A DNA stretch of 57,608 nucleotides, taken from an uncultured virus (IMG/VR IMGVR_UViG_3300027963_000045) (taxonomy: Duplodnaviria; Heunggongvirae; Uroviricota; Caudoviricetes). How positions within the stretch are numbered: position 1 is the stretch's first letter; the number at the start of each line of letters is the position of its first letter. This document shows, piece after piece, positions 3,001 to 47,965 of this stretch. A model generated the notes under the pieces. It saw nothing but the letters and a program-made list of their open reading frames with translations. It made no database searches and was not told where the DNA came from. Where the stretch lies: IMG/VR virus record IMGVR_UViG_3300027963_000045; one strand, given 5' to 3'. The translations under genes were made by a program, and so were the position numbers.

Positions 3001-6000
3001 GACTGCTTACAACCCATTGATAGACATCAATTGTACTACCGGGGAATATTTGTCCCCAGCGTCGACTTGCATACACTATGTCATTTTGATGCGGGTCAAT
3101 AAATCTAACATTAGATGTATCCCACCAAATTTGTCCCACACGTTCTTGTGCCCATCGACTGCCATAATTATTCAGTGTGCCAGTGTTGTAGGCTGCAGGA
3201 TCAACTGCACCAATGTAATTAATATTCTGTTGCACTGCACCCAACAACCGTCCTTGCAATGGATCAAAGAAATCAAAATACTGACGTGGTTTACCAGTTA
3301 CACGATCATACATGTAAATGGTATTCAACAAATCAATGTCAACAACTGGTTGTTGGATGTGAATTGGTATCCAGGCTGGACTTAGATTTGGATTATGATA
3401 TTGCAGTACTTTACCAGTATTAGCTGAACTATCGCCAAGATCACTGCCCGGCGCTCCAATTAATAGAACTCCAGTTGTGTAATCAATCGATCGTCCAAAT
3501 TCGTCAAGGCTGTTGATTGTGTCATTGACAAATTGTTGGCCAAAAACAAACTTAACCGGGTTTTCAACTGTTGCCCCCGATGAAGACAATGCATCATACT
3601 CGTAAACAACACCGCTTTGATTTGATGACCCATAGAAGTTGGTACTACGAGCATCAAAGTATGTTTCGCCACCATCAAATGTAGTTGGAGAGATCATACT
3701 GCCGTTTGGTGCGCCGACCATCAATGTTACAACATCGTCACTGATGAATAATCCTTCACCAAAGTGTGCTTTGACTTGCGCAATAGGTGGGATAATAGTT
3801 TGTTGCCAAACATACGTGTCAAACCCAATATCATCAAACAATGTGCCAGTACCTGGTAATACTGTCAGCTTGTTAAAACGTTGTGCCGCATCATAGTTTG
3901 TAACATTAATTGTTATTCTACCAGACACTACCACAATTTTTGCAGTATTGAATGGAGCAACTACAAAACTAATTTGTTGAGCGGTGTTATTATAAGTGTA
4001 ATCAACTCCCAGTGTTTGTAACACATCGTCAACATACACAACAGGAGTATATGAAGCAACTGAAGAATAAATGTCACCAACATCTAGAATTTTAGATGTG
4101 CCATCGCCTTCAAACACTAGATCTGGTGTCAACGTTGCAGTCACATTAGGTATTTTTGCGGCTGCAATATCACCAAACAAATCTTCAATAGTAGTTCCAG
4201 TGCATTCAACAAACTCGTTGTTAATGCGAATGTATTCTCCCGGGGTCAGGGTTGGATTTGCAATAGTTGAACTAATGGTCCCGTACACACGAGCTTGATT
4301 TCTCCACACTTCGACCTTGCCTCCTTCAGAGACAATAGTTGAATCATATGGTGAAGAAATGTACAAACTACAATCGTTAATACATTGATCAAGCTTCCAA
4401 CCAAACTTGCTAGCATTGCTAGGAACATCTGACGCTAGTTGTTCAAGTAATGTAAATTGGTTTGTTTCAATTTCAATAACGTCACCAACAGCAAGTGGCG
4501 CTGTAATTGTTACAAATTGACTGCTAGGATTACTTGTATCTACTGCAAACGTACCATTGACGTTCAATTCAGCATTGACCAAGAATTCACCGTTGAGTGT
4601 GACTGAAATAAATCCTGGGTCAATCATGTCTTGCACAGGATAATAATCTGTTTGTGTAGCATCTGTAACAATAATACGTTGAATACTACGATCAAAAATG
4701 TATGCTTCTCCTGGCTCATTTTCATCAAGGTTTGGGGCGCCAATCATGATTTGGCTTCCTGTTGTGTTACAACTAATAGATTGTCCAAATCGGCTGTCAA
4801 CCGTGCTACTGTCTCCGGGTCCTGGGATGTCAAGTGTGGCCACATAGTCAAAATAACTCAAGCTATCAACCAGGATAACTGCGCCCGGTCCTGGCACTGT
4901 GAGGAATTCCAATTCCTTGGTAACATCATCAAACGTATAATCAATGTCTGGTCGATACAGCTGATCATTTACACGCACTGTAAAAGACCAAAGATTAATT
5001 GCTGTGGCCAAATATTGGTCTAATTGGAACAGGTAGGTGTTACTTACGCCACTGCCAGTGGGGTCTTTAAGATCAATAATAGCACCGTTGCTGTCTACTT
5101 CGGCAACAGTCACAGTGAAATTATTGGCTGGGTTTGTGCCGCCGCCAATGGTTGTGCCGTAAAATGTAACAGTGTCGCCAACTGCATAGTCAGCACCACC
5201 AGTTTGTACCACTGCGGTATAGTCGCCGCGCACACGGTTTACTGTGAATGTTGCACCAGAACCTGATCCTGTTTCCGAGTCTGGCACTACATTGTAGTAT
5301 CGTTGTTGGTCTAACTGCACGCCCGACTTGCGTGAAATAACAAGTCGTTGTCCGGCTGTGGGCAAGTCTATTAGAGAAAGAGTGCTACTAGATATCGAAT
5401 AATCACCAGGATAATTTAAAATTGTGTTGTCTAGTACAACAGATAACTGTTCAGGTTGATTATAATCAATTGAAATGTAATCACTCCAATTAAATAATTG
5501 TGATGTTCCGGTTGTAATATACTCAACACTTTGTTGAGCAACATCAACACGAGTGTAAGCATATACTTTGTTACCAGCCGGAGCTGACACAAACATCCAA
5601 CGTTCGTTTTGGCTTGTAGTAACACTGTATCCAAATTCAATTGCGCTGTAGTCACCATCGGGTGCAACTAGCAATTGTCGTTGTTCATAAACATTGCTTC
5701 CTGGAGATACGTAAATTGTGGTAGCATAGCCTTGAGCACTGTTACTGTTACTTGCACCTGCAAGACCCCAACTTTGATCACCAATATCAATTTGATTTCC
5801 GTAACCGGCAGCGTTTGTGGCCTTCAACTCCAGGATTGAATTTTGTTCGTACACATCTTGATCGTTACGAACATAGGTGTAGATGCCGCCTGGCTCAGTT
5901 TCCAAAGAATTAGGGTTATACCCTGGAGCACCAATCATGGCGCTGAGATTCCAAAAACCTTGGGCCACACTCTGTCCAAAGTGGCTTCCGGCCACAGGAA

Positions 6001-9000
6001 TTTGTGCGTCCAGTGTGGTATCTAGCACAAATGGTTCTGTTTTTTCAAGTACTGACCATAAATTCTCTGCGTTGCTGTCAACCCATACTTTGACGCCCGG
6101 AGTTAATTGCTGTGCAAAAGATAACGATGCTATATCACTGGGTTGTGCGACTCTAGTAGATATCAGTGTTAGTCCTAGGCCATCGCCCTCAACAGAAGTA
6201 ACAAAACCACTGAATGTGTAGTTAATTGTAACAGAGTAAATGCTAGGCACATCTAATACTGTGTATACTCCATTGATGTTGCTATCAAAGTTTTTAATTA
6301 TTAGAATAGATCCAACACTCAACCCATGAGCTTGATTAAATGTCACAATACTTTGTGTTTCAAGATTGTCGCTGACCTGAGTGATCGCCCCGGCAACTTT
6401 TGATGTTCTGTAAACATTCCAGTTATAGGTATTGACTCGAGCCACCCATACAGTTGTGCCAATGCCAACATTATCTAGAACATTGGTAATATTTGCTGGA
6501 TCGCTAAGATCAAACACTGTGATGTCAACATCATTTAAGTTTACATATCCAGCACTAGGGAAGCTCTTGTCAGATACACGAGCCTCGGTCGTTGTTGGTA
6601 GAATATTAGGCGAAGTTATTTTGTAACTGCTCTTCCAGATGTCATTGACCAATGTTGTTTGATCTGCACGTGATACTTGCTCTGGTTCAACCACCTGAAT
6701 CAAGCTTGGATCGCTTTGTAACAGTGGTTCATTGAGCAACAGTTCATAGTAACTAGAATTTGCATTTGCACCGTATATTCCGCGAAGTATTGCCCAGTAC
6801 TCGTAAACATTATATTCTGCAACCTCCTTACCAAGGTTAGCAAGGCTAAACAAGTTAGTTGCTCGACGTGTTCCTTTGGTACCCAAGAACTGCTGATACA
6901 AGTTAACTTGACTCACATCATCAAGGTTGAGCGCAGCCATGTATTGACGTGGACGGAATCCAATCAAGCCATAGCTAAAAATATCAACTTCTTCTTCTAA
7001 GTTTGCATTATAGGTGCTGTATGCAGTGGACAATTGATCACTGCTGTTAGATGCATTGGGCAACAATCCTTTTTGCACCTGTGCATAATCACTCTTGAGC
7101 CATAAATTGTAATCAAACATAGCACTAGGTTTAATAATTGTGCTTGCACTCCAGTACTGATCTTTGAACAGCACAATGTCGCCTTTTGTATATTTGCGAT
7201 TTGGCTGCCACTCTTGTATGTTATCCTGGTTGAGTACAAAGCCTGGAGCATTCACAGTTCCGTTCCAGTCTCCACTCAACCATCCAGCTACCAACACACG
7301 ACTTTGACGTGCGCCTGTTACAGGATTGTAAATCAAGTCAGCAAAAATACTTGTGTTGTCTAACACAACTAGATGTTCATACGCCGTGAATCTCAAGTTC
7401 AAGAAGCAAATGGTATCTGAACTAGTAACACTTACCTTGAAGGTATTGTCTAATCGATCAAACACAAGATTGCTTGGCTGAATGGTTTGTTTGTTTTGAT
7501 TTAAAATCAAGTTATCAAGTCTAGGTGGGTACAAGCTTTCGGCCACCGCGCCCGGACGTATTACTGCAATACTAGTCGCACCTGGATTCAAGTTAATAAT
7601 ACTACCAGTAGTCCAACCTTGGTTGCTCCAGTACAAGAACTCTTGGGCCATTTGGTCCCAGTTCATGATATATCCGTTTTCAATTCCTTCAAAGGTCGTG
7701 CCATTTTCTTCTAGCAGTTTTCCATAACTGAGCAAAAAGTCGCAAACGGCTGCTCTGTTTGTAAAGACAAATCCGTATGGCACCCGAACAATGTTGTTGG
7801 TGTACTCGCTTGGCACTGTTACATCAGATCCACCGGCCGCAATTATTTTTTTCTTGCCGTTGGGTTTGGATACTAAAATTTTAAAGAAACTTGCCAGGCT
7901 AGCATACCCGTAAACTGCCCATCCGTCAGATGTTGTTTGCACAATAACTGAACTATATGTTATTTTTTCAAATGGGGGGTCTTGATACAACAGCAACTGG
8001 TAGCTTTCGTCTGGTAACAGCAACCCGGTATTAGACCCACTTGGTGTTGAACGCTCGGTATAAATTTTCAAGAACTTCTTGTCGCTGAATGCGGCCAGTC
8101 TCCAGCATAAACGTATGTCCAAGTTGGCCAATGTTTCGGTCAATCCAGTGCTACTGTCTATGCCACGTTGTTGATTATAGTCAATGATCCAGTTAATGTA
8201 ACTCGCTGTGCTATTATCATTGCCATACAATGGTGTAACGTTCTTGGCTTCAAGTCGATAACGATTATTCCACAGGTATTGATCTAGTCCGGTGTCAAAT
8301 ACATATCGATCACGATCAACAAACAAACTAAAAAATTTAGCTGGCTTGGTAAGCGCAAGCAATCGCATCACTGCAAATGGCCACGAGCTACTTGTTTTCC
8401 AAGCGTTTTCAACTGGACCGTCATCTCCAAATGCCCAGCTACGACGGAAACTGGTGGCATCATAGTTGCCAACCACAGATGAAAGTGGTGCTAACAACAT
8501 GCCTTCGCTTCCGCTGGGTATTACATTTGTTAGACCTGGGCGAATATACAGTGGATCAACTCTTGGATTTTCTGGATCTGCAATATACCCTGCTTCTAGA
8601 TCTTGCCATAACACCAAGTTACCAGAGGTGTAAGGTGCAGGGCCATATGTGTCTTGCCACCACGTTGGTTCTTCACTAAACCCTAGCATTTCCCATGGTG
8701 TGGTATTTGGTGTGGTAGTGTCGTAGAAATACTGATATATGCCGCGCCAACCGCCAAGCAATGGTGCGCCATCAAGCTTGTTGCCACTTTGATTATAATT
8801 GTAAGTGAATGGGTTGTTGGCTTGATAATTCTGTGCTGTATAATCAAGTTTGTTCCAGCCTACCCATCCCAAGAAATCTGGTTTTAGAATACTATTGATC
8901 TCATCAAGCGTGTAATCAGTGACGCGGAACTGCCCAGGGATAACTTCTTCTGCTACCAACGGCACCGGCGTTTGAATTTTTAAGTTGTTGAAGATACGTG

Positions 9001-12000
9001 TTTCAAATTCAAGCAGAACTTGATCTCGGAAATCGCCAAATGCCACGGTGATACTACCGTCATGTCCTTGTATAACTTCTGTGGGGGTAACGTAGCTTTC
9101 ATCAATAAAAATTTCTGGTTTGTATGCCGGATACAAACCCATTTTAGTTGGAGTATTAGGAACATAGCTGCCGTATGTGGTACTGTATTCACGAATAGTG
9201 ATTACATCACCAACACTTAACGTAGTAAGGATTGTAATAGTTGAGGAGTCTGATGACACAGTGTAGTCATAGTCTTTGACAAGTATAGTGCCGTTTTGAT
9301 ATACTAACAATCCAAAAAAGTTTGAGCTAGTAAAATCATATATTTGTGTTGTGTCAAACACCGCGGTGCTAATAGGAGATACTGTGTAGACTAATTCGGT
9401 ATATGTTTGATTTGACGGGAGCATATCGCTCCAGTAAAACGGAAACAGTTGATTGCGGCCAAGAGTAATTTCTTCAATTGATGCGTCAAGAATTTGTGTT
9501 GGTGTTAAGTTTACAAAATCATTGCGGCCTGCAACATCTAGCAACAATGCTTTGTACTTGGTATATTCTTGACTGTTGTATGTTAGTGCGTTAAACAACT
9601 CATATTGTTGCTTGCGCAAAAATACGCCCGGTAAAACCAACGGTGCCGAATGCTGAACAATGTTTTGACCGTACGGAATAATGTTTCCAAGATCCCTGGT
9701 GTTGTTGGCACCGTTGATTGGTCCAACAATAGTTTTTAAATTTTGCCCAATGGTATTGTAATGTGTACGGATAGTACCCAATGTAAACTGTGAGCTGTTG
9801 TTGTTTAGTGCATTGTTTTCAAGATTAATTGGAACTTGATAAAACGCCACTGAGCTAGCAATATTACTAATAGCCTGCACTTCAATAATAGTTTCATTGG
9901 CTATGGTAATAGAAAATGTAATTGTGGTCGTGCCATTGCTGTTAACAACTGTGGTATAGTTGTTTGGGTCAACGAACACCCCTTCAATAAAAATTTGCAC
10001 CGGTGGGTATATTGATGCAGTATCAATTGGAACATCAAGCACCAGAGGTTGATTGGTGTATGTAAATCTAAATACTTGACGGCTTCGGTTTTCTGCTGCC
10101 GCAGGCTGCCATCCAATTTGATTACTAAAAGTAACACGGTCAATGTATTGTCTAACAAAACCGTCACTGACGGTTACTGTTGTGCTTGTTTTATCTTTAA
10201 CGTAGATAAATGTGTCGTCATACAAATAATTGGAGAATACAATGTCGCCAACGTTGTTGATGGTTAGATATTTTAATGCTAGACCCAGCACCGGGTCCAA
10301 GATGCTAGAATCAGTTACAGCATAACCAAACAACTTGTTACCAAAAAATGTAGTACTTGGGTATACCGCACGATCGCCAAAGCTACGACCGTTTAAGTCG
10401 TAGACATCAAACAACGGAGCTTGGTTTACGCCAGTTTTCTGTTGTGCAGAAATCCATTGGTCTCCGTTAAACCAAAAACTTTTGCCTTGTAGTGTTGCAC
10501 CGTTGAGACTCACCACTGTTTCGTCGTACAACACTTCACCGTTTTCAACTGGCACCAAATCAATTACTAGTGTACCACTATCATTGGGGTCTATGAATCG
10601 TACTTCGTAAATTCTATTTCTTACTGTTGGATCAATGTCTGCGGCAAAAATAACTAGTGTACCATTTAAAAACGTATATCCATCAATGCCATAACCAATT
10701 CGCCCGTTGACGTTACTCAACGCATCAGTTTGATTGAAGTCAATGATGTTTATTGGTCTCTTTGATAACGTACCGTAATTCCATAGTTTTAGATTTGATC
10801 TAAATTCAATAATAGGACGTTTTGCACGTTGTGCATTATCAATAACTGGAATAATGTTATTTCTCTCGGCACTGTAGTTAATAACATCAATGTGGAACCA
10901 ACGATTGCTTCTGCTCCAAGCATTGCGATCGGTGGCCGCACGATTAATTGTAATATAGTCTTGAATCAATGGTGCATTGATACTAGCATCGTACCCGCCA
11001 ACATCGTACTCTAGACTAGAGTAAGGTATAAGTTCACTCTTGGTGTATGTTTCGGGTGTTACCAGATCTGTAACAGGGATTAATTTGATACCGTTGCCTT
11101 CGTCGGCACCTGCTACTGATACGGTTGATATTGGTGCTCCCTCTGGACCACCTGCACCATAGTTAATCAAACTGGTTTCAACAGTGTCGTAAATGTATTG
11201 TTGAAAATATCCAGTGTGTGTTGCGCCGGTCATCTTTTGACCTTGATACTCATGGAATGGTCCAAAGTATGCTTGACCATTAACAAATCCCACTTGAGTC
11301 GCTAGCCCTGGACCTGTGCCCACGCCCTCAACATAGTATTCCAAGTCCTGATATTTTGCAGGATAAGTTGGTCCTCTAAATTGAATTTTTAGTCCGTTGG
11401 TGAAAACTACACCGTTGGGACTGGTGTAATTTTTAGACCCGATGATTTCGTCAATGATAATTGGGTCAGCTTGTGCTGGATCAATTAATCGAATCTCTCC
11501 AAAAATTTCTGGGTTGGTGCTGTCTTGGTAATACAACGTATCTTGTACAGCAGTCAACAATGGCTGTTGTTGATAATAACCACTGGCATTTTTATACCAA
11601 TAAGTGCTGTTGTACTCAGTACCATAACGAATACGGAATTTAGATAGATTTGGAACATCTAATACGCTGTCAAGTGTCATGTACGGGTTACCGTCAGTAT
11701 CGTACACATAGTTAATACGCCAAACGCTGTAGCGTTGACCTTGAACAGTTATGTCTGTGGTCTGATCAAATGTAGTAGTATCAAATGTACCAATTGCGCC
11801 AGGAGTACCAGCAGTGGGGACCGGGTCAAACTGTGTGTTAATTTGCCAGCCACCTTCTTCTGCATTAAAAATGCGATTTGTAAAAATTACGCTACGACCA
11901 TTCAGTGCAGTGATACCATCAATGCCGTTAGGGAATTGCTCTAGGAATACCGAAACATAAATGTTGTTGATTTGATTAAACTCTAAGTGTGTGACCAAAT

Positions 12001-12763
12001 CAACTGGGGCAAGTTCGGTTAGATTATAATAAAAATCTTGAGCGTTTTTTAGCGGAACATAAAATTCAACACTGCCAACATCCTCACCATTGTTAACAAC
12101 CCCATATACGTCGCGACTGCTGATATTAGGGGATTGCGGTAAGCGTCCATTTACACCAGGGGTACTTTGTATCCAAAAATTATGCCCAGATTGATTAACA
12201 TTGAATGTGTAATTACCACCACGGGCAAGCGTGATAATTGGATTATTGCCCGATGTACCAAAAAATTGATAAGCAGTTGGTGTACGAGTTACTGCAATAT
12301 CGTCGGTTAGCGGAATATCTGTGTTGCCCACATCAACTGAATCAGGTCCGGCAGGAAGCCAATAGTACTGGCTATAGTTGCTGAATTTGTCAAAGTCTAC
12401 AAATGGGTCCCAAGAGTAATATTCACTTTCCCACAAACGATCTTGGCGGGTCACATCTCCATCTTGCAATGCAAGGGCGTCAATAATACCTGGATAAGTG
12501 ATGGCATCAATTGCTTTAGCAGTGTCGGTTTTTAAAAATACAACGCCCGGTTCAAGTTGATAATCGTTACGAACTGCTGTTGGTTCTGTAATGTATTTGT
12601 CAGCTGGGTTGACTCCTGGGCCGACACGACGACCTACATAGCCTTGAGTGCGGCGAATGTTTGGCTCTTGTGTGAGTTGATCAAGAGTGGCCGACAAAAA
12701 TTTACGATTGGTATTGGTTCGAAAAATCTCTGGTAAGAGATCAATTGTTCTATTCAATGCCAT
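1..12763 (-). CDS. Giant baseplate wedge protein (gp7-like position), >4,250 aa, runs off the left edge of the window
   Basis: Absent from the ORF track, consistent with no stop codon in the window. ATG at 12763 (MALNRTIDLLPEIFRTNTNRKFLSATLDQLTQEP...) follows an AGGAG SD. The same frame is still open at positions 2-58 (GNTTAGVSDGWSIPITQYF). It lies directly downstream of gp6. Continuity was spot-checked, not read codon by codon. Confidence 0.8.
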   Translation of the reverse strand, partial: MALNRTIDLLPEIFRTNTNRKFLSATLDQLTQEPNIRRTQGYVGRRVGPGVNPADKYITEPTAVRNDYQLEPGVVFLKTDTAKAIDAITYPGIIDALALQDGDVTRQDRLWESEYYSWDPFVDFDKFSNYSQYYWLPAGPDSVDVGNTDIPLTDDIAVTRTPTAYQFFGTSGNNPIITLARGGNYTFNVNQSGHNFWIQSTPGVNGRLPQSPNISSRDVYGVVNNGEDVGSVEFYVPLKNAQDFYYNLTELAPVDLVTHLEFNQINNIYVSVFLEQFPNGIDGITALNGRSVIFTNRIFNAEEGGWQINTQFDPVPTAGTPGAIGTFDTTTFDQTTDITVQGQRYSVWRINYVYDTDGNPYMTLDSVLDVPNLSKFRIRYGTEYNSTYWYKNASGYYQQQPLLTAVQDTLYYQDSTNPEIFGEIRLIDPAQADPIIIDEIIGSKNYTSPNGVVFTNGLKIQFRGPTYPAKYQDLEYYVEGVGTGPGLATQVGFVNGQAYFGPFHEYQGQKMTGATHTGYFQQYIYDTVETSLINYGAGGPEGAPISTVSVAGADEGNGIKLIPVTDLVTPETYTKSELIPYSSLEYDVGGYDASINAPLIQDYITINRAATDRNAWSRSNRWFHIDVINYSAERNNIIPVIDNAQRAKRPIIEFRSNLKLWNYGTLSKRPINIIDFNQTDALSNVNGRIGYGIDGYTFLNGTLVIFAADIDPTVRNRIYEVRFIDPNDSGTLVIDLVPVENGEVLYDETVVSLNGATLQGKSFWFNGDQWISAQQKTGVNQAPLFDVYDLNGRSFGDRAVYPSTTFFGNKLFGYAVTDSSILDPVLGLALKYLTINNVGDIVFSNYLYDDTFIYVKDKTSTTVTVSDGFVRQYIDRVTFSNQIGWQPAAAENRSRQVFRFTYTNQPLVLDVPIDTASIYPPVQIFIEGVFVDPNNYTTVVNSNGTTTITFSITIANETIIEVQAISNIASSVAFYQVPINLENNALNNNSSQFTLGTIRTHYNTIGQNLKTIVGPINGANNTRDLGNIIPYGQNIVQHSAPLVLPGVFLRKQQYELFNALTYNSQEYTKYKALLLDVAGRNDFVNLTPTQILDASIEEITLGRNQLFPFYWSDMLPSNQTYTELVYTVSPISTAVFDTTQIYDFTSSNFFGLLVYQNGTILVKDYDYTVSSDSSTITILTTLSVGDVITIREYSTTYGSYVPNTPTKMGLYPAYKPEIFIDESYVTPTEVIQGHDGSITVAFGDFRDQVLLEFETRIFNNLKIQTPVPLVAEEVIPGQFRVTDYTLDEINSILKPDFLGWVGWNKLDYTAQNYQANNPFTYNYNQSGNKLDGAPLLGGWRGIYQYFYDTTTPNTTPWEMLGFSEEPTWWQDTYGPAPYTSGNLVLWQDLEAGYIADPENPRVDPLYIRPGLTNVIPSGSEGMLLAPLSSVVGNYDATSFRRSWAFGDDGPVENAWKTSSSWPFAVMRLLALTKPAKFFSLFVDRDRYVFDTGLDQYLWNNRYRLEAKNVTPLYGNDNSTASYINWIIDYNQQRGIDSSTGLTETLANLDIRLCWRLAAFSDKKFLKIYTERSTPSGSNTGLLLPDESYQLLLYQDPPFEKITYSSVIVQTTSDGWAVYGYASLASFFKILVSKPNGKKKIIAAGGSDVTVPSEYTNNIVRVPYGFVFTNRAAVCDFLLSYGKLLEENGTTFEGIENGYIMNWDQMAQEFLYWSNQGWTTGSIINLNPGATSIAVIRPGAVAESLYPPRLDNLILNQNKQTIQPSNLVFDRLDNTFKVSVTSSDTICFLNLRFTAYEHLVVLDNTSIFADLIYNPVTGARQSRVLVAGWLSGDWNGTVNAPGFVLNQDNIQEWQPNRKYTKGDIVLFKDQYWSASTIIKPSAMFDYNLWLKSDYAQVQKGLLPNASNSSDQLSTAYSTYNANLEEEVDIFSYGLIGFRPRQYMAALNLDDVSQVNLYQQFLGTKGTRRATNLFSLANLGKEVAEYNVYEYWAILRGIYGANANSSYYELLLNEPLLQSDPSLIQVVEPEQVSRADQTTLVNDIWKSSYKITSPNILPTTTEARVSDKSFPSAGYVNLNDVDITVFDLSDPANITNVLDNVGIGTTVWVARVNTYNWNVYRTSKVAGAITQVSDNLETQSIVTFNQAHGLSVGSILIIKNFDSNINGVYTVLDVPSIYSVTINYTFSGFVTSVEGDGLGLTLISTRVAQPSDIASLSFAQQLTPGVKVWVDSNAENLWSVLEKTEPFVLDTTLDAQIPVAGSHFGQSVAQGFWNLSAMIGAPGYNPNSLETEPGGIYTYVRNDQDVYEQNSILELKATNAAGYGNQIDIGDQSWGLAGASNSNSAQGYATTIYVSPGSNVYEQRQLLVAPDGDYSAIEFGYSVTTSQNERWMFVSAPAGNKVYAYTRVDVAQQSVEYITTGTSQLFNWSDYISIDYNQPEQLSVVLDNTILNYPGDYSISSSTLSLIDLPTAGQRLVISRKSGVQLDQQRYYNVVPDSETGSGSGATFTVNRVRGDYTAVVQTGGADYAVGDTVTFYGTTIGGGTNPANNFTVTVAEVDSNGAIIDLKDPTGSGVSNTYLFQLDQYLATAINLWSFTVRVNDQLYRPDIDYTFDDVTKELEFLTVPGPGAVILVDSLSYFDYVATLDIPGPGDSSTVDSRFGQSISCNTTGSQIMIGAPNLDENEPGEAYIFDRSIQRIIVTDATQTDYYPVQDMIDPGFISVTLNGEFLVNAELNVNGTFAVDTSNPSSQFVTITAPLAVGDVIEIETNQFTLLEQLASDVPSNASKFGWKLDQCINDCSLYISSPYDSTIVSEGGKVEVWRNQARVYGTISSTIANPTLTPGEYIRINNEFVECTGTTIEDLFGDIAAAKIPNVTATLTPDLVFEGDGTSKILDVGDIYSSVASYTPVVYVDDVLQTLGVDYTYNNTAQQISFVVAPFNTAKIVVVSGRITINVTNYDAAQRFNKLTVLPGTGTLFDDIGFDTYVWQQTIIPPIAQVKAHFGEGLFISDDVVTLMVGAPNGSMISPTTFDGGETYFDARSTNFYGSSNQSGVVYEYDALSSSGATVENPVKFVFGQQFVNDTINSLDEFGRSIDYTTGVLLIGAPGSDLGDSSANTGKVLQYHNPNLSPAWIPIHIQQPVVDIDLLNTIYMYDRVTGKPRQYFDFFDPLQGRLLGAVQQNINYIGAVDPAAYNTGTLNNYGSRWAQERVGQIWWDTSNVRFIDPHQNDIVYASRRWGQIFPGSTIDVYQWVVSSLPPSEYTGEGTPRSLDNYVVTSSINLQGFLETQYYFWVSGIPTVDRTAGKTLSTTIIARYIESPKSSGISYVAPINASTVAIYNGVPYISAQDTILYIGYDREANDDNVHVEYQLVAQGRASAFLTDTLYKKMLDSLSGATTSGFAVPDPFLQISERYGVEFRPRQSMVANRFLALKNYLGRANTVLAQYPISEIRKFNLLNSSEPQPASSSGAWDKRVVNIEELSYQNLDEVDVGYTYLVDSDSTNNGFWTIYEVEFNNLTGKNYVRLIRVQNYDTKLYWNYINWYSPGYNPLSRILIEVPNVSSLDTITVPNGSSIKITANAQGKWEIYLRENNAWTRVALQDGTISFSTSLWDYSVGRFGFDSEVFDAQYFDQAPTIETRKIIQAINEELFVDDLLIERNNLLMLLFNYIMSEQEAPDWLTKTSLIDVDHVIRDLVPYQIYRRDNQDFVLNYIQEVKPYHVQIREFNLKYQGLDTFNGTLTDFDLPAYWDSAQDLFISPVLDNTGTLSTTSSLPSTSPVWTTFPWNQWYQNYLLSLDGVTIIDGGSGYSTPPEVTVTGDCIRQAVVTATINSAGQVNSIVVVDPGEGYSTTATITFTGGNGSGAVAVAVLGNAKVRNLLTVIRYDRYQYTSDVSIWESDTTYPSGSLVRYDDRVWEANTEVQTAEFDPSNWTLVPAGDLSGVNRTWGYYVPTPNQPGLDLALLMTGIDYPGVQVMAPSFAQDTGFDVGGFDITPFDNISYAPDGTPTYDPAILDAIYSSEFTDPYLGILPAPAYDGAPPTTGPANAISVNGGAFVDTYESHAPEELVPGITYDTLDMRVFTTPGSDWEGNGHGFPIATRNFVMGDGNMSFAGALDYPVVVQVYNQTQGLELDVGVDFTVDWVNYTISVTQHAVAGNVISVNVYALGGGNQMYTNTYIGSVVEDTIVIPIETSLINSFAIFVNGVQNTDYTYDAVGSGNTVITFGTVFTSNDRITLTALGNTTAGVSDGWSIPITQYF

Positions 12764-28911: not shown

Positions 28912-30671
28912 TTCAAATAAAAAATCTAACTGTTAAGAATTTCATGAGTGTGGGCAATGCCACACAAGGTGTTGACTTTGATCGCAACGACCTTACTTTG
29001 GTATTGGGAGAAAACTTGGATTTAGGTGGTGATGGGTCACGCAATGGCACAGGTAAGACCACAATTATCAATGCACTAAGCTATGCCTTGTATGGGCAAG
29101 CACTTTCAAATATTCGCAAGGATAACCTTGTGAATAAAACCAACGGCAAAAACATGTTGGTTAGTTTGGAATTTTTTATCAACGGGCAAGAATACAAAAT
29201 TGAACGTGGTCGTAAACCCAACGTGCTGAAGTTCTATGTTAATCACGAACAAAAAACAGCACAAGATGAAGCACAAGGGGACTCTCGAGAAACACAAGAT
29301 GCAATTGAACGTGTCGTTGGTATGAGTCATGAAATGTTCAAGCATATTTTGGCGTTGAACACTTATACCGAACCGTTCTTGAGCTTAAAGGCAAACGATC
29401 AAAGATTAATAATTGAGCAACTGCTTGGTATCACAATGCTAAGTGAACGTGCTGAGCGAATCAAAGAACTAAACAGACAAACCAAAGATGATTTGAGCCA
29501 AGAAGAGTTTCGCATTCGCGCTGTTCAAGAAGCAAACAAGCGTATAGAAGAACAAATCGAAAGCTTGCGAAAACGCCAACGTCTTTGGACTACCAAACGT
29601 GATGAGGATGTTTCTGCATTTGAACAGGCAGTTGCTGATCTTGAGCACATTGATATTGAATCTGAAGTACAAGCTCATCGAGATCTTAAAACTTATCAAG
29701 CAAAACAAAAGGCAATCAACGAACTCAACAAGTGGATTCGTCAAATTGATGCAGATGATGGCAAATTAAACAAACGTTTCACACAGCTCAAGAAAGAACT
29801 TGAGGATATCAAAGCACATCGATGTTTTGCTTGTGGCACAGAGATTCACGACGACAGTCTTGATACTGTAAAAGCCGAACGAGAAAAAGAAAAACAAGAA
29901 ATTGCACTACAACTGTTAACTAACTCTACACAGCAATTAGAGCATCAGGACGCACTGACTGAAATTGGTGAGCTTGGTATTGCTCCAAAAGTATTTTATG
30001 ATTCTTTAGAGCAAGCTCTCAATCATAAAAACACAGTTGAAGGACTGCGCAAAGATTTAAACGCACGCCGTATTGAAATTGATCCGTACTCTGAACAAAT
30101 TGACGACATGACCGGTCAAGCATTGCAAGTTGTAAGCTACGATCGTATCAACGAGCTAACAAAATTACAAGAACATCAAGACTTTTTGCTCAAACTGCTA
30201 ACGTCAAAAGACAGCTTTGTTCGTAAAAAGATCATTGATCAGAATCTAAGTTATTTGAACAGTCGCTTAACACATTACTTGGATCGTATTGGATTACCAC
30301 ATACTGTGAAGTTTCAAAATGACTTGACTGTGAGCATCGAAGAACTGGGTCGTGAACTAGACTTTGACAACTTGAGCCGCGGCGAGCGCACACGACTGAT
30401 TCTTTCAATGTCGTGGGCATTCCGAGATGTGTGGGAAAGTTTGTATCATCCCATCAACTTGTTGTTTATTGACGAGCTCATGGACAATGGTCTTGACACT
30501 CAGGGTGTAGAGAATGGACTTAGTTTGCTTAAACGCATGAGTCGAGAACGTCACAAGAGTATTTGGCTTGTGAGTCACAAAGATGAACTTGCCGGGCGTG
30601 TTGAAAACATTCTCAAAGTTATAAAAGAAAACGGGTTTACTAGCTACAACAATGATATTGACATCGTTTAA
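28908..30671 (+). CDS. gp46: Recombination ATPase subunit (Rad50/SbcC-like)
   Basis: KNFMSVGN, Walker A NGTGKT, coiled coil with CFAC zinc hook, signature LSRGE, Walker B LLFIDE, SH motif. Confidence 0.95.
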   Translation: MIQIKNLTVKNFMSVGNATQGVDFDRNDLTLVLGENLDLGGDGSRNGTGKTTIINALSYALYGQALSNIRKDNLVNKTNGKNMLVSLEFFINGQEYKIERGRKPNVLKFYVNHEQKTAQDEAQGDSRETQDAIERVVGMSHEMFKHILALNTYTEPFLSLKANDQRLIIEQLLGITMLSERAERIKELNRQTKDDLSQEEFRIRAVQEANKRIEEQIESLRKRQRLWTTKRDEDVSAFEQAVADLEHIDIESEVQAHRDLKTYQAKQKAINELNKWIRQIDADDGKLNKRFTQLKKELEDIKAHRCFACGTEIHDDSLDTVKAEREKEKQEIALQLLTNSTQQLEHQDALTEIGELGIAPKVFYDSLEQALNHKNTVEGLRKDLNARRIEIDPYSEQIDDMTGQALQVVSYDRINELTKLQEHQDFLLKLLTSKDSFVRKKIIDQNLSYLNSRLTHYLDRIGLPHTVKFQNDLTVSIEELGRELDFDNLSRGERTRLILSMSWAFRDVWESLYHPINLLFIDELMDNGLDTQGVENGLSLLKRMSRERHKSIWLVSHKDELAGRVENILKVIKENGFTSYNNDIDIV

Positions 30672-31773
30672 TTACAATCACATTGACGAATATCAAATTG
30701 AGATAACGTCTTACTGCAATGCCGCGTGTCCGCAATGTCCTCGAAACGATTTAGGCACAGGTATCAACCCACACATGCCATTAGTACATTTACCAAGGGA
30801 TGTAATCGATCGTGCGTTTCCAAAAGAACTGTGCCAACGTTTACGCATGGTGTTCTTTTGCGGTAGTTACGGCGACCCAACTATGCATCCAGACTTTCTA
30901 AATATTTTGCGAGACTTTAGAAAGAAAAACAAAAAACTTTGGTTGTATATTCACACAAACGGTGGCGCACACAGTCGACCTTACTGGGAAGAAATTGGTA
31001 CCATCATGAACGGCTATGGACAAATTGACTTTGGCATTGATGGATTAGCTGACACACTGCCGTTGTATCGTAAAAACGTTGTGTACGGCAAGGTATTACA
31101 AAATGCTCGTGCATTCATTCAAGCTGGTGGCCGAGCCAAGTGGAACTACATTGTTTTTAAGCATAATGAAGATCAAATTGAAGAGGCTAGAGAAATCAGT
31201 AAACAGTTTGGTTTTGCTGAGTTCTTGGTACGCAATACTGGTAGGTTTTTTAATCATCAAACAGTAGAAGAGATGTCGCATTGGCCGGTCAAGGGCGAAA
31301 GTTATATGCTAGAGCCACCTACAAATCCCGAGTATCGTAACAAGAGCATGTTGTTTTTGCCTGATCTTAAAAAACAGTATGCAAACATCAAAGACTATTT
31401 TGATACTACAGAAATCAAATGTGATGCGCTGATGGGTCGCAAGGTAGCTATCAATGCCGAAGGAATTGTGTTACCTTGCAACTTTTTCAATCACAACTTG
31501 TATGATGCTAGATTTCACGATGGGTCGTTGCCCGGTGCAAACGATCTTAGTAGTACAAATGGACAGAACCAAGTTAGACACTTTTTATCCAAGTATGGTT
31601 TAGATAATCTTAACATACACAACAACAGCTTAGAAGGTATTTTTGAAAATCCCATGTGGGATGATTTGGTTGCTAGCTGGAAAGATAACAGCAGATTGTT
31701 TGAGTGTGCTATGACATGTGGTAGTAAGCTCACAAAAGTATGGGACCAAGGAGGAAACAACCAATATGACTAG
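30652..31773 (+). CDS. Radical SAM protein with a SPASM/twitch-like C-terminus
   Basis: CNAACPQC (CxxxCxxC), G..GDP, TNGG, then C...G.VLPC...C..TC. Confidence 0.88.
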   Translation: MILTSFNYNHIDEYQIEITSYCNAACPQCPRNDLGTGINPHMPLVHLPRDVIDRAFPKELCQRLRMVFFCGSYGDPTMHPDFLNILRDFRKKNKKLWLYIHTNGGAHSRPYWEEIGTIMNGYGQIDFGIDGLADTLPLYRKNVVYGKVLQNARAFIQAGGRAKWNYIVFKHNEDQIEEAREISKQFGFAEFLVRNTGRFFNHQTVEEMSHWPVKGESYMLEPPTNPEYRNKSMLFLPDLKKQYANIKDYFDTTEIKCDALMGRKVAINAEGIVLPCNFFNHNLYDARFHDGSLPGANDLSSTNGQNQVRHFLSKYGLDNLNIHNNSLEGIFENPMWDDLVASWKDNSRLFECAMTCGSKLTKVWDQGGNNQYD

Positions 31774-32374
31774 AGAAATTAAAATTAATAAAACATTTTT
31801 AATCACCGGCGGCAATCGTGGCCTAGGTGCAGTGATCGCTGAATGTTTTAATGGCGTCAGCACAAGCCGGCAAACTGGGGTTGATATTACCAAAGACGTC
31901 GACACTATTGTTGCAGAAAGTTTAAAATACGATGTGTTTGTAAACAACGCATTTGACGGGCCGCCACAAGAGGACTGGGCTAATTTTGCGCAGACCAACT
32001 TATATCTAGCAATCTACGATGCATGGAAAGCTGCCAACAAATCAGGTTATATTTTTAACATAGGTAGTATCGGAAATCGTAGTATTGTTTCTCCTGAACC
32101 TAGATTTGAAACCTATCGTGTTGCCAAGGCTGCGCTGGAACATGCCAGTCGTCAGGGCACCCAAGCATTTAAACAAAATCATGTACCATTTAAAACCACA
32201 CTAATCAACACTGACCGATTGGACACTGAACTCAGTCGTAGCCGTCCTACATGGACTGGTAACGGAGTAAGTTGCTATGACGTTGCAAACTTTATCACCT
32301 ACGCATTACTTACAGGCTCAAATACTTGCATCGAAGATATTTCTTTTTATTGTAACTTCGAACATCAGGCATAA
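31766..32374 (+). CDS. Short-chain dehydrogenase/reductase (SDR)
   Basis: TGGNRGLG Rossmann motif, VNNA, catalytic YRVAK; likely start ATG 31766 overlapping the radical SAM stop. Confidence 0.85.
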   Translation: MTREIKINKTFLITGGNRGLGAVIAECFNGVSTSRQTGVDITKDVDTIVAESLKYDVFVNNAFDGPPQEDWANFAQTNLYLAIYDAWKAANKSGYIFNIGSIGNRSIVSPEPRFETYRVAKAALEHASRQGTQAFKQNHVPFKTTLINTDRLDTELSRSRPTWTGNGVSCYDVANFITYALLTGSNTCIEDISFYCNFEHQA

Positions 32375-32385
32375 TTACATGTCCA

Positions 32386-32814
32386 ATGTCATGGTCCTAT
32401 CAAAATATTCCAGTGGAAACTCTCCCAGAAGATTGCATAGGATTCGTGTATCTAATCACTAACATGACTAGTGGACGCATGTATATAGGCAAAAAACTAG
32501 CAAAATTTTCCAAAACCACCCAACGTACAGTTAAATTAAAAAACGGCAATAAACGCAAGAAAAAAATTCGCACCAAAGTTGATTCAGATTGGCGGGACTA
32601 TTATGGGTCAAGTCCAGAACTAACCAAGGATGTTGAAGCTTTAGGCAAAGACAACTTTAAACGAGAAATTTTATACTACTGTAAAAGCAAATCTGAATGT
32701 TCATACATTGAAGCTAGAGAACAATTTTCACGTAGAGTGTTAGAATCCAAAGATTACTACAACGGCCATATTCAAGTTCGCGTCCACGGCTCCCACATTA
32801 TAGGCAAAATTTAA
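32386..32814 (+). CDS. Small stand-alone GIY-YIG family nuclease (Seg-like catalytic domain, 142 aa)
   Basis: GFVYLITN...MYIGKK (GIY-YIG variant), YYGSS, F.REIL, conserved E (YIEARE) and YYN; no long C-terminal DNA-binding tail. Confidence 0.85.
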   Translation: MSWSYQNIPVETLPEDCIGFVYLITNMTSGRMYIGKKLAKFSKTTQRTVKLKNGNKRKKKIRTKVDSDWRDYYGSSPELTKDVEALGKDNFKREILYYCKSKSECSYIEAREQFSRRVLESKDYYNGHIQVRVHGSHIIGKI

Positions 32815-33250
32815 ACAGTTACGACTCGCACAGGTCAACTTCATGTGTCCTAAACCTGGATCTCGGATCGCAGGGATGGAAGTCTTGCCGCTGTAGCAAG
32901 CACTCAGCAACTATCCTTGACAGGACGACGATCGCAAATTGCCGCGGTTTTGCTGTTTGAAAAGAATTTAAAGGCTAAAAAGACGTAGCAGTGATGCTAT
33001 ACTTTATACTACCCAGTTAGCGTTGAGTAGTATAAACGCCGTTGTGATAAGAACTGAGCTCGAGGTACCGGACAACCGCCTCTGTAATCGCTTTAACGCT
33101 AATGACTGTGCTACTCGGATGATGCCTAGCATTTCATTTTTGCCCTGTGCGGGCAAAGTGTGACTGATTAATCTGGATGATAACTTAAATCGCTTCGCTC
33201 TAAACAATGTGTGAGCGCAAGCGAAACACATAGATGTGCAAAGCACATCT
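32815..33250 (+). ncRNA. Candidate large structured non-coding RNA (or structured DNA element)
   Basis: Longest non-coding gap in the window; about ten helices visible by eye, a GNRA-capped hairpin, an 11-bp pseudoknot with G-U pairs on the + strand, and twin TGACTG-N8-GGATGAT motifs. Confidence 0.7.
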
Positions 33251-33624
33251 CAATACAGTTTCTCTTCAATGATAACACTTTGACAAAGTATGTTAATTTG
33301 TTTTTTGACTTTGGCTCTTAAGTCATTCTTGAGATAAACGTTTCTTGCTAGTTGAATGAATTCATCGTCAAATTGATTCCGTTTTTCGTGATCTCGTTTG
33401 GCATTCTCAATATCCCATAACTCTTGATTAATGGCTTTTAGTTCAAGACGCAACTGTCTAACTGAGTCTACTAGGTCATGATTGTGTAATACCTTCAACA
33501 GTTCCATTAACTCATATTGTATGTTATTTCTTTGTTCTGGTGTTGTTGCGTGATCAATCTTTAGTTCCAAGATTGTGATCTTGTCTACAAGTTCACCTAC
33601 GCTGACAGGAACATGTACAATCAT
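33250..33624 (-). CDS. Conserved hypothetical protein (DUF6165-like)
   Basis: PVSVGELVDKITILELK...LWDIE...FI.LAR.VY..ND.RA..K..IN pattern; likely start 33624 (ATGA overlap with the upstream gene). Confidence 0.7.
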   Translation of the reverse strand: MIVHVPVSVGELVDKITILELKIDHATTPEQRNNIQYELMELLKVLHNHDLVDSVRQLRLELKAINQELWDIENAKRDHEKRNQFDDEFIQLARNVYLKNDLRAKVKKQINILCQSVIIEEKLY

Positions 33625-33956
33625 AGATTTTGATCTGGCCAATCTCTAAACAGTGCATGTTGTATGTTGCCATTGACAAACTGATTGAAACTCTTGTGTT
33701 TGGTTTCAAGTTCTCCCTCACGTGGCACAACTCGTTTAAATGCCTGATCCATTTGTGCCATGTCACGGAACTCCATGATAATCATCCACTCTGGCATATC
33801 AGCGATGCTACGGAATCCCATCTTGCATCGTGTGATCCTGTATGACACCATTTTGTCTTCTGATATCAAATGATCAAAAAAGCTTTTCATTCCGTTGACC
33901 CAGTCCAAGTCTGAGATATCGCCTTCTTTGTCTGCCCAAATTGTATATAAATCCAT
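33621..33956 (-). CDS. Hypothetical protein, dimeric alpha-beta barrel-like (DUF6614-like)
   Basis: Y.ITR.KMGF...PEW.II.EF.DMAQ.D.AF pattern, FALYRDFPD-like end. Confidence 0.55.
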   Translation of the reverse strand: MDLYTIWADKEGDISDLDWVNGMKSFFDHLISEDKMVSYRITRCKMGFRSIADMPEWMIIMEFRDMAQMDQAFKRVVPREGELETKHKSFNQFVNGNIQHALFRDWPDQNL

Positions 33957-33958
33957 AG

Positions 33959-34393
33959 TTACTCCATTGGTCCTAATAGTTCAAAGCCAGCTAGACTTTG
34001 TTTGTACAGATGTGCTTGTTCCAAATACAAGTATTTGAATCCACGTTGTTTGTAAATAGCACATTCTGTTTGCAATGTTGTGATACCCAAACGCAGTTTT
34101 GGATTGTGGTAGTTCCAAGCAAATTGATCACACAGTGCATTTTCATCGTCGTAGCGTCGGATCAAACTAAACGCTACCAGTTTGTCTTGATCATAGTAAC
34201 CCAGAACATCAGTCATTGGGTCAGTGTAACGACTATCAAATATAGGCATCACTGATGCAAATCTTTTGTGTTTACAGTACTCTCTGTAGATGTTGTTCAA
34301 CGCGGCAATGTTGGGATTTTGAAGATACTCCCACTTTACGTTTGTATCATAGTTGGTCTTGCTCAAGTCAATTCTGGCAAACTGATAAGTCAT
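33959..34393 (-). CDS. Minimal arginyl/aminoacyl-tRNA-protein transferase C-terminal-like (ATE_C/GNAT) protein
   Basis: GYYDQDKLVAFS...WNYHNPKLRLG..TL..E....K.RG.KYLYL....YK resembles the Ate/Bpt C-terminal domain. Confidence 0.6.
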   Translation of the reverse strand: MTYQFARIDLSKTNYDTNVKWEYLQNPNIAALNNIYREYCKHKRFASVMPIFDSRYTDPMTDVLGYYDQDKLVAFSLIRRYDDENALCDQFAWNYHNPKLRLGITTLQTECAIYKQRGFKYLYLEQAHLYKQSLAGFELLGPME

Positions 34394-34893
34394 GCTCGCG
34401 GATCTTTACGATTATGGAACAACTGTGTTAGATACTCTTCTGACCAGTTGTGATAAAATCCTTTGCTGGCCATCTGCTGAGCTTTGGTGTTCAAGTCGCT
34501 AAGGCATTGCACCAAAGCCAATGCATACTGACCCTGATTCATGATGACGCCATTGACGTTTTCTACATCTGCTGGGTGATCCTCCAGGGCCAAAATATCG
34601 TTACGAAGCAGGTGTTCTTGATTTGCAGCTTCTATGCTGGCACTAAACAAATCATATGGCCATTCTGCAGGATCATATGCATAGATAATAACTTCCTTGT
34701 TGCCCATGCCATACCGTGCTCGGTTCTTGAGATCAAAGTAAGGGTCACTGCCTAGATAAACTTCAAATGTACGTTTGAGTCTTGCTGATCGTGCAAACGG
34801 ACAGGGCGGCCAACCACCCAGGGCAGGATGTGGAACTTCTACAAAGTTCTCTATCCAGGATTCTATATCTGCTTGTACTTGTTCTAGATTCAT
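34390..34893 (-). CDS. Hypothetical protein (DUF1415-like)
   Basis: WI..FV.....PCPFA and DHP motifs resemble DUF1415. Confidence 0.5.
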   Translation of the reverse strand: MNLEQVQADIESWIENFVEVPHPALGGWPPCPFARSARLKRTFEVYLGSDPYFDLKNRARYGMGNKEVIIYAYDPAEWPYDLFSASIEAANQEHLLRNDILALEDHPADVENVNGVIMNQGQYALALVQCLSDLNTKAQQMASKGFYHNWSEEYLTQLFHNRKDPRA

Positions 34894-47345: not shown

Positions 47346-47353
47346 TATAAATA
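47346..47353 (+). promoter_or_regulatory. T4-type late promoter
   Basis: Exact TATAAATA upstream of a structural gene cluster. Confidence 0.75.
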
Positions 47354-47446: not shown

Positions 47447-47965
47447 ATGGGTCGTCCTCTAAAAATTAAAAAATCAACAACCAAAGACATCGGTTTTAAC
47501 AATCTTGGTAGCCTAACAAATCCAGTTTACCCTGCAACATTAAACTCAGCTCAATACCTGGGTGCAGTTGGTGGTGAAAACACCAGCGTGGCCACATCAG
47601 CATATCCTGTGGTTCGTGTTCAAGCACGTGACACCACTGGAGCCGAGGAAGCCGCAATCATTGTGCGTCAAAAAGGAAGCACAACATATTTGGTGTTGGG
47701 TCAAAGCAGTGGAAACACATATCAAGCTACTTTGGCAAATCAGGCAACTGGCACACTATCACCAGGCAACATGAATATTGCCATGTTCAACGGCGACAGC
47801 ACAGATATTCTAATCAGTAAACTCACCAACAAGTTTGCCTTGGATTATTCTACACCACCTGTTCGTTATGTGATTAACTTCTTCACAGACGAAGGCACTG
47901 AAATCAAGTCTGGTACAAAAGGCGAAACAAACGCATTGGCTATTGCAGAAAACTACACAAGCTAA
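47447..47965 (+). CDS. Putative virion structural / decoration protein
   Basis: Strong AAGGAG SD, late promoter upstream and terminator-like hairpin downstream; MGRPLK start and IVRQKG motif. Confidence 0.6.
   Translation: MGRPLKIKKSTTKDIGFNNLGSLTNPVYPATLNSAQYLGAVGGENTSVATSAYPVVRVQARDTTGAEEAAIIVRQKGSTTYLVLGQSSGNTYQATLANQATGTLSPGNMNIAMFNGDSTDILISKLTNKFALDYSTPPVRYVINFFTDEGTEIKSGTKGETNALAIAENYTS

Follow-up and report, generated by a model that had tools for sequence, protein, structure and literature searches.

In the DNA of an uncultured tailed phage (IMG/VR record IMGVR_UViG_3300027963_000045; Caudoviricetes), from which a stretch of 57,608 nt was analysed (hereafter, the window), the largest gap between open reading frames (ORFs) of at least 100 amino acids (aa) measures 435 nt (32815-33249) and begins directly after the stop codon (32812-32814) of a gene for a single-domain, SegE-type GIY-YIG nuclease of 142 aa (32386-32814, + strand). 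Comparison with its relatives shows that this gap encodes, as read from their alignment, one large non-coding structured RNA of ~436 nt on the + strand (32815-33250, our type A), and that its predicted 3′ core is common to a larger family of phage RNAs of 440-600 nt that carry other 5′ domains. Polynucleobacter-1, a 141-nt orphan Rfam motif unexplained since 2010, becomes the 5′ domain of a 436-nt RNA, and the following ~290 nt with the 3′ core lie outside Rfam, in a family estimated at ~3300 viral contig stretches. New relative to the catalogued motif are its exchangeable 5′ domains and the two identical 7-mers of the core, which evolve in concert.

A preliminary description of this locus, made without database searches, had rightly singled out the GIY-YIG gene and the gap behind it, and had read the two as a candidate nuclease-RNA system. 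Our results correct the reading in which a minimal nuclease with an adjacent RNA amounts to a guided nuclease. We favour instead, with a probability of about 0.5 for the explanation as a whole, a modular RNA that would be made as the 3′ end of a longer transcript and would act as a scaffold for its twin 7-mers, independently of the nuclease.

A large structured RNA on the + strand

Conservation after the gene, covarying pairs and the lack of a reading frame delimit the RNA. The gap is conserved in relatives at 70-85% identity, and 117 sequences match the RNA profile over its full length with nhmmer. Among 113 relatives, the length differences between two anchors (33004-33246) are spread evenly over the mod-3 classes (38, 40 and 35), and this absence of a bias for multiples of three indicates that the gap is non-coding. 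No frame is conserved, which rules out small ORFs, stop-codon read-through, frameshifting and translational bypass between matched codons; for the bypass reading, where the 7-mers described below would often be a codon plus UGA or UAA, the haplotype ACAUCAA offers no stop. The 5′ end of the RNA would lie between ~32804 and 32823, and its 3′ end would be a terminal hairpin overlapping the stop codon of the convergent gene.

The structure was derived from an alignment of 113 distinct full-length relatives with RNAalifold, a mutual-information scan and inspection. It comprises 102 pairs in 23 helices, three pseudoknots among them, and 92.8% of its cells are paired, compared with 77.0% when the 3′ partners are shuffled (0 of 500 shuffles reach the observed value) and 35-42% when they are slid by 1-3 columns. 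Both sides have changed in 80 of the 102 pairs, with 1798 compensatory cells against 521 in the shuffles. Across the same pairs there are 679 G-U cells and 232 A-C cells, an excess that places the RNA on the + strand, and pair 32930/32949 is G-U in 112 of the 113 sequences. Covariation and the G-U count therefore bear out the elaborately structured + strand RNA that had been proposed. In folding, none of 100 shuffles was as good as the + strand (z -2.90) and one of 100 was as good as the − strand (z -2.16).

The 5′ third of this RNA is already catalogued. With cmscan and Rfam 15, RF01718 (Polynucleobacter-1) was found at 32823-32958 (+) with 117.8 bits against a gathering score of 37 (E 5.5e-25), covering model positions 1-141 of 141, and it is matched by 20 of 20 type A relatives (66.8-119.7 bits). 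The rest of the gap (~290 nt) matched no other Rfam family even at E up to 1. The earlier statement that the RNA belongs to no named family thus fails for 136 of the 435 nt and stands for the remainder; the strong Rfam hit that had been named beforehand as an argument against the proposal likewise concerns these 5′ 136 nt only. In the account of the motif given by Weinberg et al. (2010, PMC2864571), Polynucleobacter-1 figures as a candidate with 16 representatives, found in Burkholderiales and in fresh water, whose function is unknown and which is scored as a likely cis-regulatory element; the entries of the RF01718 seed alignment name a copy in a Polynucleobacter genome (NC_009379.1, at about 2130772-2130906).

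Our RNA agrees with this motif in matching the whole model, in the covariation of its helices (P1, P2, P3, P4 and P6 all have pairs changed on both sides) and in the freshwater habitat. However, the 141 positions of the published motif make up merely the 5′ third of the 436-nt RNA, and the RNA lies at the 3′ end of a gene block, unlike an element of a 5′ untranslated region (UTR): the gene that follows it in the window, as in most relatives, lies on the opposite strand and points towards it. This failure of the 5′ UTR position concerns the proposed role and leaves the membership in RF01718, by sequence and structure, untouched. Two further differences are a pseudoknot, PK1, absent from the Rfam structure line, and the swapping of the whole domain for others in sister RNAs. 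In bacterial genomes, a GC-rich pattern gave chance matches alone, with 0 of 121 loci fitting the RNA profile.

Within the Rfam domain, supported on the + strand by cmscan and covariation alike, we find the covarying helices P1 (32828-32832/32844-32848), P2 (32856-32862/32866-32873), P3 (cttgc/gcaag, 32882-32888/32896-32901), P5 (tcc/gga, 32911-32916/32923-32927) and P6 (gatcgc/gcggtt, 32930-32935/32944-32949; 635 of 649 cells paired). The domain is closed by P4 (32905-32910/32950-32955), which is 97.3% paired and occurs in the compensatory versions CAGCAA/TTGCTG, CAATCA/TGATTG and CAACCA/TGGTTG, and PK1 joins 32823-32826 to 32833-32836, its pair 32824/32835 being G-C in 71 sequences and A-U in 37. 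Two further couplings, a joint swap of 32914/32926 from U/C to C/U (78 and 35 sequences), which is a non-Watson-Crick covariation, and a flip of 32911/32927 from C-G to G-C (99 and 14 sequences), suggest a conserved non-canonical extension of P5.

The uncatalogued part, also on the + strand, is reached through an A-rich, single-stranded linker (32959-32984) with no predicted or covarying pairs. It starts with the hairpin P7 (gtagca-GTGA-tgctat, 32985-33000), which has a GUGA tetraloop and both-side changes in five of its six pairs, and continues with the long hairpin P8 (tttatactac/gtagtataaa, 33003-33036), where all 13 pairs show compensatory changes. The P8 loop (33018-33023) forms the pseudoknot PK2 with 33096-33101 (98.4% paired, compensatory changes in 6/6 pairs). 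The 3′ strand of PK2 belongs to a pseudoknotted junction (33039-33101) that also holds PK3 (GUUGU with ACAAC; 33039 and 33041-33045 with 33072-33076 and 33078), whose pair 33043/33074 is U-A in 100 sequences and C-G in 13, as well as P10 (33056-33059 with 33090-33093; compensatory change in four of four pairs) and the covarying hairpin P11 (gagg/cctc, 33062-33065 with 33079-33082). Seven of the helices drawn in the preliminary description (P3, P5, P6, P7, P8, P11 and P9) are supported by the alignment. A long-range closure of ctcag-caac with gttg..ctgag is not, as only 646 of its 1015 cells are paired (64%), without compensation, and 32907/33054 is A-C in 80 of 113 sequences; neither is a caggt/acctg helix, with 373 of 565 cells paired (66%).

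Other classes of RNA were considered and rejected. A group I intron with a homing gene finds no intron family match at E up to 1 in 32600-33500, and the flanking genes are complete, the downstream one lying on the opposite strand. A transfer-messenger RNA (tmRNA) was detected neither by the Rfam tmRNA families nor by ARAGORN, which returned 0 tmRNA and 0 tRNA for the window.

A common 3′ core with twin 7-mers

The 3′ core, the part that all types of the family have in common, is laid out as two similar modules around a hairpin, followed by small hairpins and a terminal hairpin. Module 1 (33102-33123, +) consists of AUGAC, a spacer, ACUC and a variable 7-mer (GGAUGAU, 33117-33123); module 2 (33160-33181, +) consists of GUGAC, a spacer, AUCU and a 7-mer (33175-33181) that is identical to the first and lies 58 nt downstream, the two covarying in the sense of the same nucleotide in both. 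Between the modules stands P9 (tttgccc/gggcaaa, 33139-33157, +), 92.3% paired. The 3′ end of the core (33192-33250, +) shows compensatory changes throughout and contains a mini-hairpin (33192-33198), the hairpin P12 (33207-33231), inside which lies a second mini-hairpin with a GNRA loop (33215-33222), and the terminal hairpin P13 (33232-33250). On the + strand P13 has no U-tract; its score is terminator-like only on the − strand. A fourth pseudoknot, of CGCTTCGCTC with GAGCGnAAGCG, was discarded, as two mini-hairpins fit better and 33192/33198 changes alone in 11 sequences.

The twin 7-mers are identical in 112 of the 113 aligned sequences, in ten combinations, and in 110 of 120 loci from a scan of the collection with a pattern that does not constrain the variable positions. 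In the ten loci with non-identical twins there is no profile match and no GIY-YIG gene was seen, four of them being too short to judge. In total, 18 haplotypes, all fitting the pattern N N A U N A N, preserve this identity. With the 7-mer columns left out of the tree, each unit needs at least 37 changes, a number that recombination may inflate, and where the two members of an independent, supported sequence pair differ at the first position of one unit, the other unit changes alike in 10 out of 10 (p ~0.002). That the two segments stay alike, and not complementary, points to one kind of partner reading both, and their fast concerted change suggests that this partner itself varies between phages or hosts. 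The twins thus bear the signature of a specificity element and provide an experimental handle.

The search for such a partner within nucleic acids was negative where it was made. No RNA column covaries with the 7-mers in a Watson-Crick manner, and their complement recurs at no fixed position in the window, in three large contigs or within 2.5 kb to either side of 113 loci. In the window, ATCATCC occurs eight times where 5.1 are expected, two of these being the units themselves, and in the flanks of the 113 loci there is no positional cluster. The small clusters seen in SbcC, DUF6614 and DUF6875 seem to reflect fixed coding sequence instead of the haplotype (the site in the DUF6614 gene of the window is formed by the codons TGG ATG ATT), and a predicted partner, ATTATCTGGGT, occurs in two contigs at three sites that are not homologous and seem to be coding. 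Inspection suggests that, with G-U wobbles allowed, either of ACUC and AUCU could pair with GGGU. Self-pairing of the 7-mers, with symmetric G-A/A-G/U-U pairs, is possible for haplotypes of the GGAUGAU type and leaves the other haplotypes unexplained, and the combination of UGAC with GAUGA resembles a k-turn or a C/D box by eye only. As for known elements with repeated sites, GGA sites of the CsrA type are contradicted by AGA in 42 of the 113 sequences, and a ToxI-like RNA of a type III toxin-antitoxin system by modules that share only ~12 of 58 nt and by the lack of a ToxN-type toxin among the neighbours (Pfam, PHROGs).

The extent of the family was approached from the protein and from the RNA. 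When IMG/VR was searched with the GIY-YIG protein and the best 80 of 368 relatives were kept, the gap profile was found full-length directly after the gene in 53 loci, a contig end cut ten, and in 17 only the last half or third of the element is present, preceded by another 5′ part. An RNA-first search with a 17-nt motif of the uncatalogued part gave 119 loci. By estimate, IMG/VR contains ~980 stretches with the type A motif and ~3300 with the core pattern, which is made of the constant parts only.

At least three alternative 5′ domains occur in this core family. In type B, the Polynucleobacter-1 domain is swapped for another folded domain, while PK2 (with other sequences), PK3 (GUUGA/UCAAC) and P9 (UUCACCG/CGGUGAA) are kept through compensatory changes; it was seen in L040 (3427-3603), L053, L056, L068, L071 and L079. 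Types C and D, of 460-600 nt, have only the 3′ core in common with type A, with P9 replaced in a compensatory manner, and were seen in L007 (3679-4000), L028 (3427-3746), L041, L077, L339, L350 and others. The alternative domains are conserved within each type, types C and D having conserved blocks of their own such as GUAGGUUGGGAAAGGUCAGAGCCC. Rfam matches were absent from all 13 type B/C loci among 20 loci scanned, and from all 20 in a further scan. There is one RNA per genome in two genomes that are 99-100% complete (345 and 353 kb). In the larger of these, G001 (352,754 bp, the contig with L042), a jumbo-phage genome that is complete by CheckV (100%) and bounded by direct terminal repeats, the only GIY-YIG gene lies at 215017-215397 and the only RNA core at 215781-215842; it would serve well as a reference for the family.

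Few natural RNAs combine a length above 400 nt with several pseudoknots, and a number of these have proved to be ribozymes, ribonucleoprotein scaffolds or self-assembling cages. Among the large structured RNAs, GOLLD, ROOL, OLE, raiA and HEARO likewise exceed 400 nt, have many helices and pseudoknots and were found mainly by comparative genomics, and GOLLD and ROOL are also associated with phages. However, none of their Rfam models matches our RNA, and to our knowledge neither the modular exchange of 5′ domains nor concerted twin 7-mers have been recognised in these classes.

Possible roles of the RNA and of its nuclease neighbour

In the explanation that we favour, the RNA would be built of the RF01718 5′ domain, a middle part with the long hairpin and two pseudoknots, and the twin-module 3′ core, with the 5′ domains acting as exchangeable accessory modules. 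It has no conserved promoter and always ends the + strand block, whichever gene is last, so that it is most likely transcribed with the upstream genes; a conserved promoter would in fact be impossible, because different genes precede the RNA. Most likely, then, it constitutes the 3′ end of the transcript of those genes, a replication/recombination block, ending at the terminal hairpin, and would be kept as a stable folded RNA. It would act alone and in trans, as a rigid scaffold presenting the twin 7-mers, each after ACUC or AUCU, as specificity elements to a two-fold partner, conceivably a protein homodimer or a nucleic acid in which the same site occurs twice. The GIY-YIG nuclease would be a syntenic neighbour and not a required partner. 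The scaffold role with its two-fold partner is speculative, and it is the part that we hold with the least certainty.

Several points weigh against this explanation. We infer the expression, the ends and the stability of the RNA alike from sequence comparison, and the search for a 7-mer partner in the window, the flanks and the three contigs returned none. All carriers belong to one syntenic phage lineage, where co-inheritance inflates every linkage count, and recombination may blur the tree on which the changes were counted. The concerted 7-mers could instead be sites for a protein at the level of DNA. Finally, the near-universal adjacency of the GIY-YIG gene (54/60 and 75/81 loci in the two counts below) would be equally expected if gene and RNA worked together, and synteny cannot separate the two cases.

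This last possibility, the one raised by the preliminary description, is that the GIY-YIG protein binds the RNA and is guided to, or positioned on, two identical sites of a DNA or RNA target by the twin 7-mers and the ACUC/AUCU segments beside them. The adjacency on which it was based is confirmed. Of the 119 RNA-first loci, 38 have too little upstream DNA, and 75 of the 81 that can be judged have a GIY-YIG gene upstream on the same strand; the six loci without the gene also lack a match to the RNA profile and are therefore chance matches of the motif. From the gene end to the motif there are 247-298 nt in 65 of the 75 (250 in the window), 307-315 in four and 1042-1308 in six, so gene and RNA abut in most loci. 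Starting from the core, the gene is present in 54 of 60 loci with full flanks, and the adjacency persists down to 50-58% protein identity. In the two near-complete genomes both are single copy and adjacent. An observation of its own is L328, in which (oriented) the RNA core pattern, from 1301, stands upstream of the GIY-YIG gene (1478-1903): the order is swapped and the two are still neighbours. Other points in favour of a partnership are the guide-like arrangement of variable 7-mers between constant flanks and a very basic arm in the protein.

The partnership itself fares worse than the adjacency. Every carrier is an uncultured jumbo phage of the same synteny, in which SbcC, the GIY-YIG gene and the RNA are followed by gp51-like and gp26-like genes on the opposite strand, and with a gene order common to all of them the linkage may be inherited. 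Genes intervene between nuclease and RNA in six of the 81 type A loci and in several others; several loci have unrelated + strand ORFs of 257-340 aa, none matching Pfam, inserted precisely between the two. Two loci, L331 and L385, carry the RNA core in a gap (880-1461) between unrelated + strand ORFs, and no GIY-YIG gene was detected there by tblastn with the protein of the window; Pfam matched 0 of the 3 ORFs submitted from L331. Their upstream ORF of 173 aa, without Pfam match, starts with MSVSYQDIP and resembles the N-terminus of the nuclease.

The protein family is also widespread without the RNA. It is present in 682 records of cultured phages, mostly cyanophages, none of which has the RNA at a level detectable by blastn, and when gene and gap together were compared by blastn with 50,697 phage records, the one match was to part of the gene, in S-H38. 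Phage Melnitz has the GIY-YIG gene with the next gene after 148 nt, and PA5oct, the closest phage by SbcC (51%), has neither the GIY-YIG gene nor the RNA at the syntenic place. Each is thus found apart from the other, and their co-occurrence is not obligatory. Residues of the GIY-YIG protein follow the 7-mer haplotype no better than background (ranks 166, 13 and 91 of 178). Among the literature matches listed for GIY-YIG proteins with structured non-coding RNAs in phages, there was nothing relevant.

The idea of a nuclease in need of an RNA had rested on a protein without nucleic-acid binding of its own, and this premise is weak. The 142-aa protein matches PF19835 (SegE_GIY-YIG) with E 2.9e-34 and 118.4 bits against a cut-off of 25, its residues 3-129 covering profile positions 1-123 of 123, and phrog_447 (PHROG 447) with E 8.8e-39; against PF01541 it reaches just 17.1 bits, with a cut-off of 22.6. 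By its AlphaFold2 (AF2) model it is of GIY-YIG fold: the model has a mean confidence (pLDDT) of 74.8, low in the C-terminal 33 residues, and the best four VIA matches among 48161 chains are all GIY-YIG nucleases, with modest Z scores (I-TevI catalytic domain, 6.2; PD-T4-3, 5.0; T4 EndoII, 3.7; UvrC N-domain, 3.6). Foldseek gave 0 matches for the model at E ≤0.001, and phmmer found nothing relevant among PDB sequences, where similarity to the solved GIY-YIG chains is undetectable. Y22, Y33, E109, R111 and N126 are invariant across 26 homologues and are putatively relevant to catalysis. Residues 36-64, which form a long β-hairpin in the model, include 14 lysines or arginines, as read from the sequence. 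The fold is common to T4 EndoII and I-TevI (PDB 2wsh, 1ln0), and EndoII is likewise single-domain and of similar size, ~140 aa, with 134 residues in the solved chain. The basic arm and the likeness to single-domain EndoII weaken the premise that the protein cannot bind nucleic acid alone. Unlike a homing gene that was mobile until recently, the gene here is single copy and has diverged in step with the phage.

There are nevertheless likenesses to RNA-guided enzymes. In IscB with its ω-RNA (HEARO) and in the bridge or seek RNAs of IS110/IS1111, a compact enzyme gene likewise stands beside a co-oriented structured RNA that has short variable segments between constant structure, and the two segments with a common sequence recall the core-binding parts of the two loops of the bridge RNA. 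In contrast to these systems, the enzyme here is a GIY-YIG protein in which no RNA-binding domain is known, the variable segments measure just 7 nt and are mutually identical, the locus is not mobile but present as one syntenic copy per genome, and protein and RNA also occur apart. With 7 nt being very short for a guide and no target found in the places searched, we consider a nuclease-RNA system unlikely. Its most far-reaching form, in which a rigid multi-pseudoknot RNA with two identical 7-nt guides, each lengthened by a wobble-tolerant flank, directs the GIY-YIG protein with its basic arm, as effector, to two identical sites of a nucleic-acid target, would be a dual-guide nuclease unrelated to CRISPR, OMEGA and Argonaute that diversifies quickly in an arms race; this form is very unlikely.

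Alternatively, in line with the replication origin that the preliminary description also offered, the transcript or the DNA could be a cis-acting replication element, an origin or primer in the manner of ColE1 RNA II or the R-loop of the T4 uvsY origin, with the twin 12-mers as iteron-like sites for an initiator. Direct repeats that evolve in concert are typical of iterons, the T4 uvsY origin lies beside genes 25, 26 and 51, and the RNA stands, once per genome, at the end of a replication/recombination block beside gp26/gp51-type baseplate genes. However, three pseudoknots, many invariant loop nucleotides and a covariation that tolerates G-U pairs argue for a folded RNA and not for DNA sites or an R-loop; there are two repeats only, the GC skew gives no origin signal, and no initiator gene was identified. 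We take this for a distinctly improbable alternative.

The RNA could lastly be a 3′ untranslated end-structure without function in trans, a terminator, insulator or exonuclease block that guards the early transcript and stops read-through into convergent late genes, as its position would suggest, always last in the + strand block and opposite convergent genes in almost every locus, together with the conserved P13, which overlaps the convergent stop codon and is terminator-like on the − strand; but ~440-600 nt with three pseudoknots, invariant loops and concerted 7-mers far exceed such a task, P13 has no + strand U-tract and + strand genes follow the RNA in L331 and L385, all of which makes it a very doubtful candidate.

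Neighbouring genes and a second RNA motif

The window looks like part of a large phage: it contains SbcD/SbcC-type genes, a T4_baseplate gene of gp26 type (p278, PF12322, E 1.9e-17), a T4-type late promoter motif and a giant open frame. It comes from an uncultured jumbo phage of fresh water that is related to PA5oct, a phage of Pseudomonas. The stretch from SbcC to the GIY-YIG gene (30652-32374, +) contains a gene of radical-SAM type (PF04055, E 1.7e-11) and one weakly resembling short-chain dehydrogenases, a block that is present, absent or replaced among relatives and therefore marks a variable cargo slot. On the other side, the convergent neighbour of the RNA, outside the RNA itself, is a DUF6165 gene (33250-33642, −; PF19662, E 3.6e-11), and the gene in this place varies from locus to locus among relatives. 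It opens a variable block of small − strand genes (33250-34893: DUF6165, DUF6614, ATE_C-like and DUF6875-like) located between the RNA and the gp51-like and gp26-like baseplate genes. The giant ORF (2-12763, −), of more than 4254 aa, runs off the end of the window and is followed by large − strand ORFs of 1160, 770, 932 and 975 aa.

The window contains a second Rfam motif, the freshwater-2 RNA (RF02980; 47359-47449, +; 68.9 bits against a cut-off of 49.9), of which the literature matches listed make no mention. Directly ahead of it lies a T4-type late-promoter consensus, TATAAATA (47346-47353), and its 3′ end is 2 nt inside an ORF of 172 aa that starts at 47447. Placed behind a late promoter and ending in the start of an ORF, the freshwater-2 RNA looks like the 5′ leader of a late gene.

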